Source of the DNA: an uncultured Candidatus Berkelbacteria bacterium
GTDB lineage: Bacteria; Patescibacteriota; UBA1384; UBA12157
Assembly (NCBI GenBank): GCA_903877885.1
Contig: CAIRFN010000011.1
Coordinates: 9,281-73,280 of the forward strand
DNA length: 64,000 bases
Reading direction: 5' to 3'
Of the stretch, positions 3,796-60,613 are shown one piece after another. Position numbers and translations under genes: made by a program. A model generated the notes under the pieces. It ran no database searches. It was not told where the DNA came from and saw only the letters and a list, made by a program, of their open reading frames with translations. The first letter of the stretch is position 1. Every line of letters starts with the position of its first letter.

Positions 3796-3859
3796 ATATT
3801 TTGTGCTTTTCCTAAGTTTTATGTTAGTTTAAAGACAGGGCAACAACTTTCAATGGGCG

Positions 3860-4072
3860 CTAACTCCCGTTGATCAAGTCATTAAGCGATTTTAGCTGTT
3901 TAGATTCCAATAAGGTATCTAAATGCATATCACTCCTGACTCCGAGGTCTATACCATATTCTGCCTCGACGGTAGAAATATGAGTATCGCCTCGTTTTTC
4001 GCGTAGCGGTCCGGTCTCATTACGAGAGCGGATGCCACGCATTCCAGGTGCGTCCTTCATCGGATTGCTCAT
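3860..4072 (-). CDS. Hypothetical small protein
   Basis: 70-aa ORF, first gene of the minus-strand phage-like operon. It sits just downstream of the DnaA-box/iteron intergenic region. Confidence 0.35.
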   Translation of the reverse strand: MSNPMKDAPGMRGIRSRNETGPLREKRGDTHISTVEAEYGIDLGVRSDMHLDTLLESKQLKSLNDLINGS

Positions 4073-4219
4073 AGCATTACTCCTTCTTAATTTAGAAGGC
4101 TCGACATCCTTCTGACCGTTTTACGGCCCTGCCGTATAGCCGTTATTTAGCCATTCAGAATTGAAAGAAGCGCCCTGTCTTATAATATTAAATGTAAAGT
4201 TTGATTTACTTAGTGTCAA

Positions 4220-4248
4220 TGTGGAAACAGTGGATAACCTGTGGATAA
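4220..4248 (-). promoter_or_regulatory. DnaA-box cluster (three tandem boxes)
   Basis: TGTGGAAAC (imperfect), AGTGGATAA and TGTGGATAA at 4220-4248. These are reverse complements of TTATCCACA-type DnaA boxes; the last is a perfect consensus. Confidence 0.5.
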
Positions 4249-4275
4249 GTTCGCTTTGTGTTCGGTTTATACCTA

Positions 4276-4378
4276 AAAATGAGACACAAGTCCTAAAACG
4301 GCCGTAGACTGTCTCATTTGTCTCATTTTCAGGTCAGAAATAGAAAAAATGAGACACAGACCGTCAAAACTGTCTCAA
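4276..4378. repeat. Iteron-like repeats built from a TGAGACA / TGTCTCA inverted-repeat unit
   Basis: AAAATGAGACACAAG...ACTGTCTCATTTGTCTCATTTT and AAAAAATGAGACACAGACCGTCAAAACTGTCTCAAAT. Two direct copies of an inverted-repeat unit plus a tandem TGTCTCATT duplication, in the divergent intergenic region. Confidence 0.45.
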
Positions 4379-4480
4379 ATCTTGCCATTCAACCTGAAAT
4401 CCGCTACAATTGGAGAAGATACTGAAAGGGGCAAAAGGTTCTAGACCGACGTGTCCCGCCATTAAAATAGGGAGGTGGAA

Positions 4481-5221
4481 ATGTCTGTTGAAATGTTGAA
4501 TAATCCAGAAGCAGAATTAAATGAAAATGAAATAAAAGAGAGAGAAAAAAAGATTGCTGATTTGTTTGAGCAAGGTTTGGACTCGCCAGATATAATGGCT
4601 TATCATGGAACTTCTCTCGAAGCAATCAATGAACTAATTAAAACCGGCTATTTACCTACTGGTAAGATTGAAGGCGGAATCGACTATTTATATTTTTTTA
4701 GATTAGATAAACCGGTTCCAGAATCTTGGTTAGATGGTGAAACTGAAAAAGAGCATATTCAAAGACGAATAGAAATGTATGCGAGAGATCTAGCTTTTGA
4801 AGCTTCGCTTTGTCGAACTCTTGGTTTAGATTTTTCTAAGGATAAACAATTTTTAGATGCCATGGGTAGTGTCGCTTTTCAACATCAAATTAGAGTTGAA
4901 ATTGGTCGTGATGAACTAAAAGAGGAACATTTGCGTAATTCTTCTCATTTTGATGCAATAATTGAATATCTTAATCGATTTGGTTTTCCAGCCATCAAGG
5001 CTGCCTTTGACGAATCATTTGGAAGAGAAGGCGTTATCATCGGTATAAATTCAGAAATATTAAAAAATGATCCGCAATCAGCTTATGACGAACTGGATGA
5101 TGAGGGTTGGAGAGCTAATTTGCCAAAAGGCTTGCCACTTGAATATATCAGTGGAATAGAACCAATTGGTCAACCAGAATATGGATATTTTGAAGCACTA
5201 CAGGAAAAACACGCAAAATAA
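4481..5221 (+). CDS. Hypothetical protein
   Basis: ORF with RBS GGGAGGTGG 5 nt upstream of ATG 4481. The ORF track starts at GTG 4475, same frame. No recognisable motif. Confidence 0.55.
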   Translation: MSVEMLNNPEAELNENEIKEREKKIADLFEQGLDSPDIMAYHGTSLEAINELIKTGYLPTGKIEGGIDYLYFFRLDKPVPESWLDGETEKEHIQRRIEMYARDLAFEASLCRTLGLDFSKDKQFLDAMGSVAFQHQIRVEIGRDELKEEHLRNSSHFDAIIEYLNRFGFPAIKAAFDESFGREGVIIGINSEILKNDPQSAYDELDDEGWRANLPKGLPLEYISGIEPIGQPEYGYFEALQEKHAK

Positions 5222-15958: not shown

Positions 15959-16144
15959 CTAATTAGTCTCCTGACGTCGCTTTTGGACCATTTCATAATC
16001 TTCTTTGGTCATTGGTTTGTAGATTAGTTCTACAAGCCGAAGCAGTTTTGTGGCCAACTCTAAAGCGTCTTGATCGTTTAGATCTTTTCCGAACTCTTTT
16101 TTGTAAATCGCCTTAAATTTGTCTAGCGATTCTTTTGAAATCAT
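15959..16144 (-). CDS. Hypothetical small protein (divergent from the island operon)
   Basis: 61-aa ORF, predicted all-helical. A 57-bp divergent AT-rich spacer separates it from the 16202 gene. Confidence 0.35.
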   Translation of the reverse strand: MISKESLDKFKAIYKKEFGKDLNDQDALELATKLLRLVELIYKPMTKEDYEMVQKRRQETN

Positions 16145-21953: not shown

Positions 21954-24332
21954 ATGAAGCAATTTAACCCATTAGAATTTCAAAAAGAGACCATAGATAA
22001 ATTATCGAAAGTTTTTGTTGAGACTTGGAAAAAAGGTGGCAAAAAACTCCCCATTGTTTTGAAAGCCCCTACTGGTAGCGGTAAAACTTTTATGGTTGCT
22101 AATTTTATCAGAGGTTTAAATCATTTACCCCAATGGCAAGAAGATAAAGCGTTTATCTGGATTACTTTTAGCGATGATCTTGCTATGCAAAGTAAAGACA
22201 AATTTGCCGAATACTTTGAGAACAATTTAGAGAACAATTTAGTTACTGTCGATGATATAAACAGAAGAAAGCTATTTAACAATGATATTATCTTTCTAAA
22301 TTGGCAAAAAATAGTTTCAAAAAGTGCCGAGACTCGGGTATTAAGGAGACCAGAAGATGAAATAATGCGAAAAGAAAGAGGGGCTTATTGGGAAGACTTT
22401 ATTGACGGAACTCAAAACGATAATCGTGAAATAATTCTCATTATTGACGAAGCTCATAAGAATAAAGGTACAATTCTTGCAAAAGAGATTATTGACTATA
22501 TAGATCCAAAAATCATTTTACATATTACTGCTACACCAGATAAAGAAGATGAACTTGAAGCCTACAGAATGGGTTCAATGGTTGAGGTTAATCGTCCGCA
22601 GGTAGTAGAACAAGGTCTTATCAAAGAAAAAATCGTGGTTCAGACAGAAGAAGATTTATTGAGCCACAAAGGGCAAGATCTTGATAAAGTATTACTTGAT
22701 TTAGGTGTTAAGCGGAGAGAAGAATTAAAGAAAGAATTTAAAGAACTTGGCAAAGATGTAAACCCTTTAATGTTGATCCAGCTACCAAACGATGACAACA
22801 AATTGATTGAAATGGCCAAAGAAACAAAAGAATCGGTTGTAAGTGATTACCTAAAAGAAATTGGAATACCTGATAAAAAAATTGCCAAATGGTTTGATGG
22901 TAGACAAGAGAATATGGAGTTAATAACTGAAAACGATAGTGACACCGACTATATGCTCTTTAAGCAGGCGGCTGGAACTGGTTGGGACTGTCCTCGTGCT
23001 TCCGTTCTCGTAATGTTCAGAGAGATTAAATCTGATAAATTTTACACTCAAACAGTTGGCAGAATACTCAGAATGCCAGAACCAGAGCTTAAAGAAGACT
23101 ACAAAAATAATGAAAATTTAAGAATTGGCTATCTTTACACGAACTATAAGAGGAATCAAGTTGAATTGCCTGATCAATCAGGCAATAATAAGCCATATAT
23201 TCATTTCTCATATCCGAAAGAAGGTGTTAAGAACATAGAGCTACAATCCGAATATATTTCAAGAGTTGATTATGGGGATATTCCAAAATCCTTTAAATTT
23301 CAGCAAAGCTTTATCAAATCAATAAACAAATATTTTGATATAACGGATAACGATATACTTGGGAAAGCCCAAAAAAAATTAGAAAACCAAAAAATAGATC
23401 TTGACGGTAATCTAACCAATAAGATTATCGTTAATGCCGAGTTTAAAGATTTCGATCAATTGAACTACGAATTTAACAAAGAAGGTAGCGATCTTGAAAT
23501 GGAAATGTCTACTAATGACGTTGAAAAAACGTTTAATTATATTTGCTATCAATTACTACAAGAACAGGAAAATAATGAAGCAAAATACACCAATATCGCA
23601 AGGTCTTGGAGTACTCTAAAATCCGCTATAAGAATTTGGTTAAAGAAAACCATTAACGAAGATAGTGATTATTTCTATCGGGTATTCGTTAAAGATATTA
23701 ATAAAGGGGCTTCTAGCAAGTTTAGACCAGCAATAACGAAAGCTTTGATTGATTTTAAGCCGATAGCAAAACAAATAATTGATGAAAAAAAGATTTTGCA
23801 CGAGCAAAAAGAAGCTCCTTTGTTTAAAATCCAAGATGAATATTCATTTACTGAAGACTATACGGATGAAGATCAGAAGCTATGTGTTCTGGATAAGTTT
23901 TATATCTTAATAGATGATTACAAGGGCAAAAAAAATGAGCTTGATTTCAAAAATTATATAGATAGTCTGGATAATTCTATTACTTGGTGGTTTAAAAATG
24001 GTGATTATGGGAAAATATATTACGCCTTAAAATATATGGACTCCGTTGATCAGAAAGAGGCTCTTTTCTATCCAGATTGGATAATCTATTTCAAGGATGG
24101 CAGAATCGGTATATTTGATACAAAAGATGACGAGACTGCTAAATCTCAAGAAACTAAAGATAAGGCCGTTGCGCTTTCTGAAAAAATAAAAGCTCTTGGC
24201 AACAAATATGTTGGTGGTATCATAGTGAAGAGTTCTGGGGTTTGGTATTTTAATGATTCGGTTAATTATGAGTTTGTAAAAGGAAAAATTGAACAAGATA
24301 AAAATTGGAAAAAATTTGAAGGAATATTATGA
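21954..24332 (+). CDS. res: Type III restriction enzyme, Res subunit (SF2 helicase-nuclease)
   Basis: Helicase motif I LKAPTGSGKTFMVANF and motif II IIDEAHK (DEAH box), 792 aa. Start is 3 nt after the mod stop. Confidence 0.8.
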   Translation: MKQFNPLEFQKETIDKLSKVFVETWKKGGKKLPIVLKAPTGSGKTFMVANFIRGLNHLPQWQEDKAFIWITFSDDLAMQSKDKFAEYFENNLENNLVTVDDINRRKLFNNDIIFLNWQKIVSKSAETRVLRRPEDEIMRKERGAYWEDFIDGTQNDNREIILIIDEAHKNKGTILAKEIIDYIDPKIILHITATPDKEDELEAYRMGSMVEVNRPQVVEQGLIKEKIVVQTEEDLLSHKGQDLDKVLLDLGVKRREELKKEFKELGKDVNPLMLIQLPNDDNKLIEMAKETKESVVSDYLKEIGIPDKKIAKWFDGRQENMELITENDSDTDYMLFKQAAGTGWDCPRASVLVMFREIKSDKFYTQTVGRILRMPEPELKEDYKNNENLRIGYLYTNYKRNQVELPDQSGNNKPYIHFSYPKEGVKNIELQSEYISRVDYGDIPKSFKFQQSFIKSINKYFDITDNDILGKAQKKLENQKIDLDGNLTNKIIVNAEFKDFDQLNYEFNKEGSDLEMEMSTNDVEKTFNYICYQLLQEQENNEAKYTNIARSWSTLKSAIRIWLKKTINEDSDYFYRVFVKDINKGASSKFRPAITKALIDFKPIAKQIIDEKKILHEQKEAPLFKIQDEYSFTEDYTDEDQKLCVLDKFYILIDDYKGKKNELDFKNYIDSLDNSITWWFKNGDYGKIYYALKYMDSVDQKEALFYPDWIIYFKDGRIGIFDTKDDETAKSQETKDKAVALSEKIKALGNKYVGGIIVKSSGVWYFNDSVNYEFVKGKIEQDKNWKKFEGIL

Positions 24333-25831
24333 AAGCGGTAATTCTTGCCAGGGTTTCGACCAAAGAGCAAGAAGATCAGGGTCATTCTTTACCCGCTCAG
24401 ATAAGAAAGCTTGAAGAATATGCGGAAAAGCATAATTTTGAGGTAGTTGAAACGTTCTCTTTCTCGGAAAGTGCTGGCAGTAAAATCAGAAAAAAGTTTG
24501 AAGAGGTTCTTAAGTACTTGAAGCAAAATAAAAGCGTCAAGGTTCTTTTATGCGAGAATGTGGACCGATTAACTAGAAACTTTAAAGACGCTGTCGATAT
24601 AGACGAAATGCGTAAAAATAACGGTCTAGAGGTCCATTTTGTTCAAGATGGCTTCTTTTTAAATGCCAAAGCCACAGGCAATCAAATGTTTATGTGGGAA
24701 GCAAAGGTCTTTATTGCCAAACAATACTTGAACAGATTATCTGATGATGTGAATAGGTCTATAGATCAAAAGCTTAGAAATGGCGAATGGCCGACGAAAG
24801 CCCCAATCGGCTACCTGAACGAAACATTAGAAGACGGCAAAAAAGATATATTGCCCGATAGTACTAGAAGGCGTTATATCAAAAAGGCTTTTGAATTATT
24901 CGCTACTGGCAGTTATAGCGTGCCGAAAATCGCTCAAATTCTTGAAGCCGATGGTTTAAGAAATAATAACCCTCAAAAATCGGTTGTGCCTTATAGCCAG
25001 ATGGATATAATCCTGAAGAATCCATTTTATTACGGCGAAATGATTTATAAAGATCAGATCTGGCCCCACCATTACGAACCAATAATCGAGAAATGGCTAT
25101 TTGAAAAATGCAATTCGGTCCGAAATGGTCGGTCCAATACTCTAATTAAATACGCCAGCAAGCCTTTTGTTTTTCGAGGGCTGATCAGATGTGGCGAATG
25201 TGGCTGTATGATCGGTAAAGACCCGAAGAAAGGTTTTAATTATTGTGTTTGTAATCAATTTAAGGGTAAGCATAAAACAGAAATAGTACTTGAAGAAGAC
25301 CTTATTGAGCAAGTTAAAGACGTTTTTCGTAAAATCAGAGTACCTATGGACGTACTTCAGGATCTAAAATTATCATTGGAAAATAACCTTAAGGCCGAGC
25401 AAGAATTTTATGAAACTTCAATTGATCAGTTCAGGAAAGAATACGACGAAAACAAACGAATATTAAAGAAATCTTACCTCGACAATGCCAGAGGGCGTAT
25501 TACAGACGACCAATATGATGAAATCTTCGAAGAAATATCAGCCAGACAAAGCTTCTTAGACAACCAAATGCAAAGGCATACAGAGGGCAACAAAGCGTTT
25601 CTTATGGCCTGTACATACCTTATCAAGCTAACAAACAAAGCACTAGAAATATTTGAAAGTTCGAAACCAGAACAAAAAAGACAACTCATCACCTTCATAC
25701 TTTCGAACTTGAAATTAGAAGGCAAAAAGCTGTCTTTTACTCTGAACGAGCCCTTCGACGCCATCGTCGAATACTCTCAATCAGTAACAAAGCTCCCCGG
25801 GCCCGATTCGAACGGGCGACCGTCTCCTTAA
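24329..25831 (+). CDS. Large serine recombinase (resolvase/invertase N-domain plus recombinase and zinc-ribbon domains)
   Basis: N-terminus MKAVILARVSTKEQEDQGHSLPAQ carries the catalytic Ser context. C-terminal Cys cluster (CGECGCMIG...CVCNQF). 500 aa. The last 13 codons or so are antisense to tRNA-Asn. Confidence 0.85.
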   Translation: MKAVILARVSTKEQEDQGHSLPAQIRKLEEYAEKHNFEVVETFSFSESAGSKIRKKFEEVLKYLKQNKSVKVLLCENVDRLTRNFKDAVDIDEMRKNNGLEVHFVQDGFFLNAKATGNQMFMWEAKVFIAKQYLNRLSDDVNRSIDQKLRNGEWPTKAPIGYLNETLEDGKKDILPDSTRRRYIKKAFELFATGSYSVPKIAQILEADGLRNNNPQKSVVPYSQMDIILKNPFYYGEMIYKDQIWPHHYEPIIEKWLFEKCNSVRNGRSNTLIKYASKPFVFRGLIRCGECGCMIGKDPKKGFNYCVCNQFKGKHKTEIVLEEDLIEQVKDVFRKIRVPMDVLQDLKLSLENNLKAEQEFYETSIDQFRKEYDENKRILKKSYLDNARGRITDDQYDEIFEEISARQSFLDNQMQRHTEGNKAFLMACTYLIKLTNKALEIFESSKPEQKRQLITFILSNLKLEGKKLSFTLNEPFDAIVEYSQSVTKLPGPDSNGRPSP

Positions 25832-25864
25832 CAGGGAGTCGCTCTACCGCTGAGCTACCGGGGA
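25793..25864 (-). tRNA. tRNA-Asn (anticodon GTT)
   Basis: Manual fold of the reverse complement: acceptor TCCCCGG/CCGGGGA, D-arm GCTC-AGCGGTA-GAGC, anticodon arm ACTCC-CTGTTAA-GGAGA, variable CGGTC, T-arm GCCCG-TTCGAAT-CGGGC, discriminator G. CCA is not encoded. Confidence 0.85.
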
Positions 25865-29687: not shown

Positions 29688-29764
29688 TTATCCACAGTTT
29701 ATCCACAGAAAATATTAAATAATCTAAAATTAAACCTGTTGAAAATAGATTCGAATTATCCACA
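29688..29764 (+). promoter_or_regulatory. Cluster of three perfect DnaA boxes (TTATCCACA) upstream of the giant gene
   Basis: TTATCCACA at 29688-29696, 29699-29707 and 29756-29764, all in the same orientation, inside an AT-rich 730-bp leader. Confidence 0.5.
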
Positions 29765-60536: not shown

Positions 60537-60613
60537 GGGCGTGTAGTTCAGCTGGTTAGAGCGCTTCTCTTATAAGGAAGATGTCGATGGTTCGAGTCCA
60601 TCCACGCCCACCA
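60537..60613 (+). tRNA. tRNA with anticodon TAT (Ile, UAU type), CCA encoded
   Basis: Manual fold: acceptor GGGCGTG/CACGCCC, D-arm GTTC-AGCTGGTTA-GAGC, anticodon arm CTTCT-CTTATAA-GGAAG, variable ATGTC, T-arm GATGG-TTCGAGT-CCATC, ACCA 3' end. Confidence 0.7.

Follow-up and report, generated by a model that had tools for sequence, protein, structure and literature searches.

The DNA stretch analysed here, referred to as the window, comprises 64,000 nucleotides (nt) of contig CAIRFN010000011.1 (assembly GCA_903877885.1) from an uncultured Candidatus Berkelbacteria bacterium. Near its left end, a spacer of about 400 bp, which we call the hub, separates two divergent genes. One codes for a protein of 70 amino acids (aa) on the minus strand (3860-4072), the other for a protein of 246 aa on the plus strand (4481-5221), in agreement with an earlier, sequence-only reading of this region. 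The 70-aa gene is the first of a leftward operon, which continues with genes for proteins of 337 aa and 200 aa, a ParB-N6 methylase, and the terminase proteins TerS and TerL. To the right of the hub, the 246-aa gene is followed by a gene with an ORF6N domain and then by chromosomal genes (desulfoferrodoxin, TspO, DnaG and RpoD). The left 8 kb of the window is phage-like in part only. An identical 70-aa protein, found by an exact-protein look-up, heads a second cassette in another chromosomal context (context B; the window represents context A). The hub contains three DnaA boxes, sigma-70-like promoters in both directions and one copy of a dispersed repeat, here called element E (4275-4461, plus strand).

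The DnaA boxes are arranged head to tail on the minus strand at 4220-4248. Box 3 (4248-4240, TTATCCACA) is perfect. Box 2 (4237-4229, TTATCCACT) has one mismatch and is spaced from box 3 by 11 bp, start to start. Box 1 (4228-4220, GTTTCCACA) is DnaA-like, with two mismatches to the strict consensus and one to TTWTNCACA. All three are the same in context B, where the substitution nearest to box 2 is at position 4238, in the 2-bp spacer. A triple cluster of such boxes was obtained in none of 300 Markov-1 simulations of the window (0/300), so that the cluster reported in the sequence-only reading, including its perfect last box, is present and non-random. Two tandem box pairs (at most one mismatch, starts 9-12 bp apart) are present in the window, with 0.01 expected. 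One pair is that of the hub, the other is at 29688/29699 (see below).

Between 3700 and 4700, there are 8 sigma-70-like promoter matches (2.3 expected). One of the two best, a predicted leftward promoter at 4191-4219 (minus strand, TTGACA-17-TACATT), agrees with the consensus at 10/12 positions, and its hexamers are the same in context B. Its -35 hexamer (TTGACA) occupies 4219-4214 and is directly abutted by box 1, which ends at 4220. Transcription would be predicted to start near 4184, which would place the boxes at about -36 to -64. The other, a predicted rightward promoter inside E (4382-4410, plus strand, TTGCCA-17-TACAAT), also agrees at 10/12 positions, and its hexamers are kept in context B. 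It would read into the gene that follows E, which is the 246-aa gene in the window and def in context B. It is also found in a related E copy (L060). In both contexts, this gene starts about 20 nt past the end of E, which leaves no room for another promoter.

The 5' leader of the 70-aa gene (4073-4190, minus strand) has a length of about 118 nt and shows only two differences from context B. A hairpin in this leader (CCTTCTaaattaAGAAGG, 4082-4099) overlaps the Shine-Dalgarno sequence of the 70-aa gene, but its fold is weak (z = -1.5). When the leader was compared with Rfam, three very weak matches were returned (RAGATH-9, DUF2815 and sucA, with E-values of 3-6), all of them on this strand.

In context B (L009:8089-14900), the cassette codes for the 70-aa protein, an SLFN/AlbA_2 protein, a 189-aa protein, the ParB-methylase, a methylase, TerS and TerL, and it adjoins def and the gene for PPDK. 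TerL is intact in this context, while it is split in that of the window (275 + 226 aa). DNA homology between the two cassettes is mosaic and restricted to two blocks. Block 1 (647 bp, 94.3% identity) covers the whole spacer and the 70-aa gene (window 4461..3817), and block 2 (1.8 kb, 82.6% identity) covers TerS and TerL. The homology ends exactly after GTGTCCCGCCA at 4461; the 246-aa gene starts 20 nt further on, and def likewise starts about 20 nt beyond this point. Thus, the hub belongs to the leftward cassette, while the 246-aa gene is outside the conserved cassette. We found the hub in 17 contigs. Its sequence is the same in all 11 with context A, and likewise within the 6 with context B. 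Of 391 hub positions, 25 differ between the two versions. The 102 nt that make up the three boxes, the five ATGAGACA motifs described below and the four promoter hexamers are free of such differences (P about 5e-4), and 16 of the 25 are in the three hairpin loops between inverted repeats.

With a probability of about 0.5, we interpret the hub as a composite region that controls transcription in both directions and is located at the start of a small terminase cassette integrated in the chromosome. An early control region had been offered in the sequence-only reading as the alternative to a replication origin, and it is this alternative that agrees with the data: sigma-70-like promoters point in both directions, the boxes abut the leftward -35 hexamer, and the 25 substitutions spare boxes, repeats and hexamers. 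The near-consensus leftward promoter would drive the complete operon, from the 70-aa gene via those for the 337-aa and 200-aa proteins to the ParB-methylase, TerS and TerL. Host DnaA, bound to the three boxes (about -36 to -64), would link the expression of the cassette to the replication of the cell and the status of its initiator, either by activation or by repression. The E half of the hub (4275-4461) would supply a rightward promoter to whichever gene adjoins it, which would be a property of this E subfamily. The ATGAGACA arms, being conserved as sequence, may serve as binding sites of a protein or form hairpins. Two of the hairpins precede a run of 5-6 T when read on the minus strand, and these may insulate the divergent units from each other.

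DnaA-regulated promoters are known from E. coli (dnaA, nrdAB and mioC), from B. subtilis (box clusters of the sda/ywlC type) and from phage lambda (pR). In these, consensus boxes form clusters that overlap or adjoin the core promoter, head to tail and about one helical turn apart. The hub has consensus boxes that abut a core promoter, and boxes and hexamers are conserved together in context B. It differs from the known cases in that the unit concerned is a terminase/ParB-methylase cassette from an uncultured lineage, and in that the boxes adjoin a dispersed repeat. The placement of three boxes against the cassette promoter suggests a mobile-element module in an uncultured lineage that is wired to the status of the host replication initiator.

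Several points weigh against this interpretation. Both promoters are consensus matches only, and the consensus sequences of DnaA boxes and promoters are assumed to apply to this uncultured lineage, for which an affiliation with CPR (candidate phyla radiation)/Patescibacteria is also made probable by an E copy in a Komeilibacteria genome and by the best homologues of the 70-aa protein. The footprint is shallow, as only two diverged hub versions are available. The segment 4180-4219 is 82% AT and adjoins the boxes as an unwinding element would, although it coincides with the promoter. Within E, promoter matches of at least 9/12 are limited to 12 of the 59 full-length copies, among them the copy in the window; in 9 of the 12, the match has a fixed position. 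Promoter supply is, therefore, a trait of an E subfamily and not of E in general. A role of E as a general promoter was rejected on the basis of these counts and because no promoter with a fixed position precedes the hairpin, and is kept for the subfamily represented in the window.

The repeats of the hub had previously been described as inverted-repeat units at 4281-4317 and 4351-4377. The motifs are indeed there, but the coordinates are off by one base, and the region is better described as having five copies of (A)AAATGAGACA within 4276-4379, in the order -> <- <- -> <-. Of these ATGAGACA motifs, motif 1 is at 4276-4286 on the plus strand. Motifs 2 (4310-4320) and 3 (4319-4329) are on the minus strand and form a tandem with a 9-bp period, which reads TGTCTCATTTGTCTCATTTT on the plus strand (4310-4329). 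Motif 4 (4346-4356, plus strand) is part of a perfect inverted repeat of 11 nt (4319-4329/4346-4356), and a further perfect inverted repeat has 10 nt (4277-4286/4310-4319). Motif 5 (4371-4379, minus strand, TGTCTCAAA) abuts the rightward -35 hexamer. The ATGAGACA tandem together with its inverted partner represents the core of E, which was found in at least 120 contigs. The window of 64 kb contains six TGAGACA heptamers, five of them within 4280-4377. An uptake signal was considered and rejected, as TGAGACA is not over-represented in the window (6 observed, 5 expected). A search of the literature for a LexA/SOS box with this motif returned no match.

In the sequence-only reading, the repeats were taken for iterons, and the hub was considered the possible replication origin of an integrated or episomal phage-plasmid. 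The data do not support this, and hallmarks of an origin are absent from the hub. The repeats are only 9-11 bp long, have mixed orientation and are irregularly spaced (starts at 4276, 4310, 4319, 4346 and 4371). The E core is found in at least 120 unrelated contigs beside housekeeping genes and without DnaA boxes, so that the repeats are not replicon-specific iterons, a pac site or a DnaA-dependent module. A pac site for TerS had been considered separately and was rejected because the repeats occur at at least 120 loci without terminases. Theta origins with iterons and DnaA boxes (pSC101, P1 oriR, RK2 oriV and F oriS) resemble the hub in combining boxes, an AT-rich stretch and short repeats in one intergenic region by mobile-element genes. 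However, they have regular direct iterons of 17-22 bp and a cognate Rep gene, neither of which was found at the hub, and the repeats of the hub are common to at least 120 unrelated loci that are devoid of DnaA boxes. The search for an initiator gene, which had been proposed for the region to the left, was negative: none of the 10 flanking open reading frames (ORFs) and none of the genes on the left matched a family of Rep proteins, primases or helicases. The 10 kb or so to either side of the hub contain neither dnaA nor dnaN. The GC skew has negative values over the minus-strand cassette alone and is positive to the left and right of this cassette; thus, it follows gene orientation and does not reflect a replication switch.

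The comparison with related contigs, which had been suggested for the detection of a circular element, had the same outcome. No circular or alternative junction was detected in the 17 hub contigs, all of which show the hub integrated in one of two fixed chromosomal contexts. What had been considered a phage-plasmid is a cassette of 5.5-6.7 kb, consisting of the hub, the 70-aa gene, variable genes and the genes for the ParB-methylase and TerS, with that for TerL at its end. In both contexts, it is devoid of capsid, portal, integrase, replication and structural genes. Nucleotide comparisons of window positions 1-8.3 kb with phage records and of the hub with plasmid records gave no match. When the unknown ORFs were compared with PADLOC, PHROGs and NCBIfam, only the ParB-methylase, TerS and the ORF6N domain were recognized, and four unknown ORFs have neither family matches nor PDB relatives (sequence-level search). 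These results remove a false origin call, and they illustrate that DnaA boxes and short repeats in a phage-like region are insufficient to infer a replicon.

The cassette might still have a DnaA-dependent origin of its own, which fires in situ or after excision and amplifies the DNA for packaging by the cassette-encoded TerS and TerL, in a satellite or run-off manner. The large terminase is genuine, though distant, TerS is also encoded, and the hub is at the end of the conserved cassette. The tandem boxes are non-random and the best one is farthest from the AT-rich stretch, which adjoins the boxes. This fits the arrangement of tandem boxes that was reported to be the most frequent one (PMC8287927). 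We nevertheless consider such an origin quite improbable. There are only three boxes, and the AT-rich stretch corresponds exactly to the -35/-10 promoter. By the trio criteria taken from the same study (at least three NAN trios within 16 bp), a run of DnaA-trios is not found on the AT-rich side on either strand, with the polarity rule not applied; a minimal run (AAA-CAC-AAG) is located 6 nt from the perfect box, but on the side opposite to the AT-rich stretch. At the sequence level, no protein of the cassette or its neighbours was recognized as an initiator, helicase, primase or integrase, gene orientation accounts for the skew, none of the 17 hub contigs has a circular or alternative junction, and TerL is split in the context of the window. 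With the basal unwinding system of oriC (PMC8287927, PMC6669920), the hub shares tandem boxes (at most two mismatches), a better match in the distal position and an AT-rich flank. It differs by the lack of at least three trios within 16 bp on the AT-rich side, of a dnaA/dnaN neighbourhood and of a skew switch at the level of the chromosome.

Another view of the boxes is that they represent a titration or reservoir site (similar to datA or DARS), or a chance relic without local function. It is prompted by a further divergent spacer in the window that holds three perfect boxes (at 29688, 29699 and 29756), and this second cluster suggests that clusters of DnaA boxes are a genome-wide theme in this organism. 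However, the position of the boxes, which abut the -35 hexamer, is kept in both cassette copies. Chance is excluded statistically (0/300 simulations; two tandem pairs with 0.01 expected), and titration sites in model bacteria depend on auxiliary IHF/Fis sites. We regard this explanation as highly improbable. The second cluster (29688-29764) is on the plus strand and consists of three copies of TTATCCACA, the first two being 11 bp apart. It is located upstream of a giant ORF (29935-58350, 9471 aa), and a TTGACA hexamer is found about 40 bp upstream of its boxes. It may be another DnaA-controlled promoter or the real oriC.

Element E was delineated by an alignment of its copies as a discrete unit of about 150-190 nt. 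In the sense of the plus strand of the window, its 5' part has the structure AAAATGAGACAC-N20-GTGTCTCAT-TTGTCTCAT. The 3' part consists of a CCGACCGAGA block, a block beginning with AAAAGCCC, and GGTTCTAGACCGAG, followed by 10-14 nt that end with GCCA. In the copy of the window, the 5' module is represented by the ATGAGACA repeats, and the 3' end consists of GGTTCTAGACC (4437-4447) and a further 14 nt up to GCCA (4458-4461). This is the only copy in the window (nhmmer match at 4275-4342, E-value 8.5e-11). A scan for the core (ATGAGACAAATGAGACA-N10-40-TGTCTCAT) identified it in at least 120 metagenome contigs and in one viral contig. Among the matches listed, there are 123 distinct E copies, with 20-21 nt as the most frequent length of the core spacer. 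A profile search revealed one copy in a metagenome-assembled genome (MAG) from Komeilibacteria, a member of the candidate phyla radiation (CPR), and also full or partial copies that are 0.5-2 kb apart on one strand in some contigs. E is modular, as the 5' and 3' modules also occur alone. Its flanks are unrelated on both sides: among 137 pairs of E copies that align, only 3 have both flanks in common, and there is no consensus in the 12 nt after GCCA. A perfect DnaA box within 300 nt of E was found only for the two cassette copies among the 123 copies listed.

The neighbours of E are diverse housekeeping genes, such as those for AlaRS, XseA, DnaG, RecO, FtsJ, a P-type ATPase, YceG and Hsp20. 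E shares its strand with the nearest downstream gene in 70/86 cases and with the nearest upstream gene in 78/110 cases. The stop codon of many upstream ORFs is only a few nt away from the start of E, and in 11 cases it is the TGA inside the first ATGAGACA motif. The viral contig and further loci, at least five in all, have a gene for a 178-aa zinc-ribbon protein with a sub-threshold match to HTH_17 that starts 22-134 nt from the hairpin. The window itself has an ORF of 61 aa (15959-16144, minus strand) that is homologous to the N-terminal domain of these proteins. Two loci (L063 and L076) have in common a conserved block in the roughly 150 nt upstream of E, directly abutting it, with the sequences GAGATAGCGAAC and CCCTCCATAAAAA and a terminator hairpin. 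This block may represent the terminal part of a further gene for a non-coding RNA.

A further, less probable reading is that E belongs to a previously undescribed family of modular elements in CPR/Patescibacteria and their phages. It could be a hairpin-dependent mobile or recombination site which shuffles genes and promoters, or an RNA element, and the hub would then be a junction with a DnaA-controlled terminase cassette. The co-varying internal repeats, the arrays of alternating genes and E copies, and the adjacent HTH_17-like protein point to a mobile or recombination site.

For a mobile or recombination element that acts at the level of DNA, two versions were considered. E may be a non-autonomous element of the HUH/IS200-IS605 type or a REP-like palindrome. 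Alternatively, it may be a res/att-like region with multiple sites, of the kind on which serine recombinases act in concert with a small excisionase-like protein, the hub being the cassette junction. The boundaries of E are sharp on both sides, with unrelated flanks, and arrays of full and partial copies, 0.5-2 kb apart, are on one strand. Its internal direct repeats (GACCGAG type) are more alike within than between E copies (permutation P about 1e-4). No target-site duplications were seen at the E copies and no terminal inverted repeats were detected, as the 5' end (AAAATGAGACA) and the 3' GCCA end are not inverted repeats of each other; there are, however, subterminal hairpins, the 3' one being located 10-14 nt from the GCCA end. 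The gene for the 178-aa protein is close to the hairpin in at least five loci, and serine recombinases are encoded within 4 kb of E in 8 loci. Against this, no transposase (RAYT, TnpA or TnpB) is encoded among the immediate neighbours of E, only 2 of the 28 divergent neighbours of E code for a recombinase directly next to it, and the HTH_17 matches are below the Pfam cut-off. Furthermore, the window has only the 61-aa homologue of the N-terminal domain, at a distance of 12 kb, and there is no second E at the TerL end of the cassette. Taken together, a DNA-level mobile element is a rather unlikely explanation.

Among known dispersed repeats, REP/BIME, Correia, ERIC and PATEs (derived from IS200/IS605) are similar to E, which is a discrete unit of 150-190 nt with hairpin potential that is multi-copy, intergenic, biased in orientation and has unrelated flanks. 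A class of "putative mobile promoters" has been named (PMC3488235). These resemble E in that some E copies carry a promoter that reads into non-homologous genes. E differs from the dispersed repeats by the lack of terminal inverted repeats and target-site duplications, and no associated transposase was found. Its core is kept across many environmental genomes rather than within one species, and it is modular, with co-varying internal direct repeats and a fixed GCCA terminus. E is thus a discrete and modular element in at least 120 environmental contigs, often placed right after stop codons and sometimes equipped with a promoter. If it were mobile or bound by a protein, this would help to explain the rearrangement or punctuation of genes and promoters in the compact genomes of the candidate phyla radiation.

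The strong co-orientation of E with its flanking genes also prompts the question of whether E, including the ATGAGACA hairpins, acts as RNA. It might be a cis-acting leader, a processing or 3'-end element, or a small RNA, co-transcribed with the flanking genes on the plus strand. Consistent with this, upstream ORFs often terminate very close to the point where E starts (11 at the TGA in the first ATGAGACA motif), and intrinsic terminators in plus orientation are found after the GCCA end in at least 8 loci. By eye, the 3' hairpin (GGUU-CNA-GACC) reaches 7-9 bp with G-U pairs in several copies, on this strand only, and complementary stems of 7-8 nt are seen in some single copies. However, E has no match to a curated RNA family even at Rfam E-values up to 10, nor does the literature contain a match to its sequence. 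RNAalifold, applied to 19 diverse E copies, returned only conserved palindromes and 0 compensatory pairs. The numbers of pairs correspond to those in shuffled sequences (273/500 and 161/500), and a self-versus-non-self stem test on E was negative. In two variants of the first hairpin (L020 and L135), pairing is kept only on the opposite strand, and the arm sequences of E are invariant rather than covarying. On these grounds (no Rfam match, no compensatory pairs, pair counts at the level of shuffles and the negative stem test), an RNA structure of E appears unsupported, and we consider a function as RNA unlikely.

Two more specific RNA functions were considered. A tRNA- or tmRNA-like 3' end was discarded, as ARAGORN found none overlapping E in 127 segments and as the "acceptor stem" fails the self-versus-non-self test. 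Canonical intrinsic termination was not adopted as the principal role of the first hairpin, because its loops have 14-23 nt, a terminator scan returned none, and U-tracts are weak in the general consensus. Folding energies indicate that the minus strand is more stable in 53/63 E copies, a comparison that is confounded by G+U content. An analysis of column-pair covariation in an anchored E alignment revealed only the conserved palindromes and an ACCG/ACCG direct repeat.

The 70-aa protein has no match in Pfam, NCBIfam, PHROG, PADLOC or PDB, and was found neither in viral contigs nor in phage records. Homologues with 51-78% identity are encoded in MAGs from Patescibacteria, Proteobacteria, Bacteroidota, Verrucomicrobiota, Actinobacteriota and Bacillota. 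In four loci (among L018-L045), the homologue directly precedes the gene for an HsdM-like type I methylase. DnaA boxes as a trait of the 70-aa family were considered and rejected, because 28 homologous loci from many phyla have no upstream boxes and no terminase/ParB neighbours.

The DNA immediately beyond TerL (L001:1-4100) has a G+C content of 56-58%, compared with 32-43% in the cassette and elsewhere in the locus (L001:4347 onward). This sharp junction recurs in three independent assemblies. Elsewhere in the window, a large serine recombinase of 500 aa with Resolvase, Recombinase and Zn ribbon domains is encoded at 24329-25864. The 3' end of its gene overlaps a tRNA-Asn on the opposite strand, which suggests that an element is integrated at that tRNA. 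A gene for tRNA-Ile at 60537-60613 has the anticodon TAT, which is unusual for bacteria.

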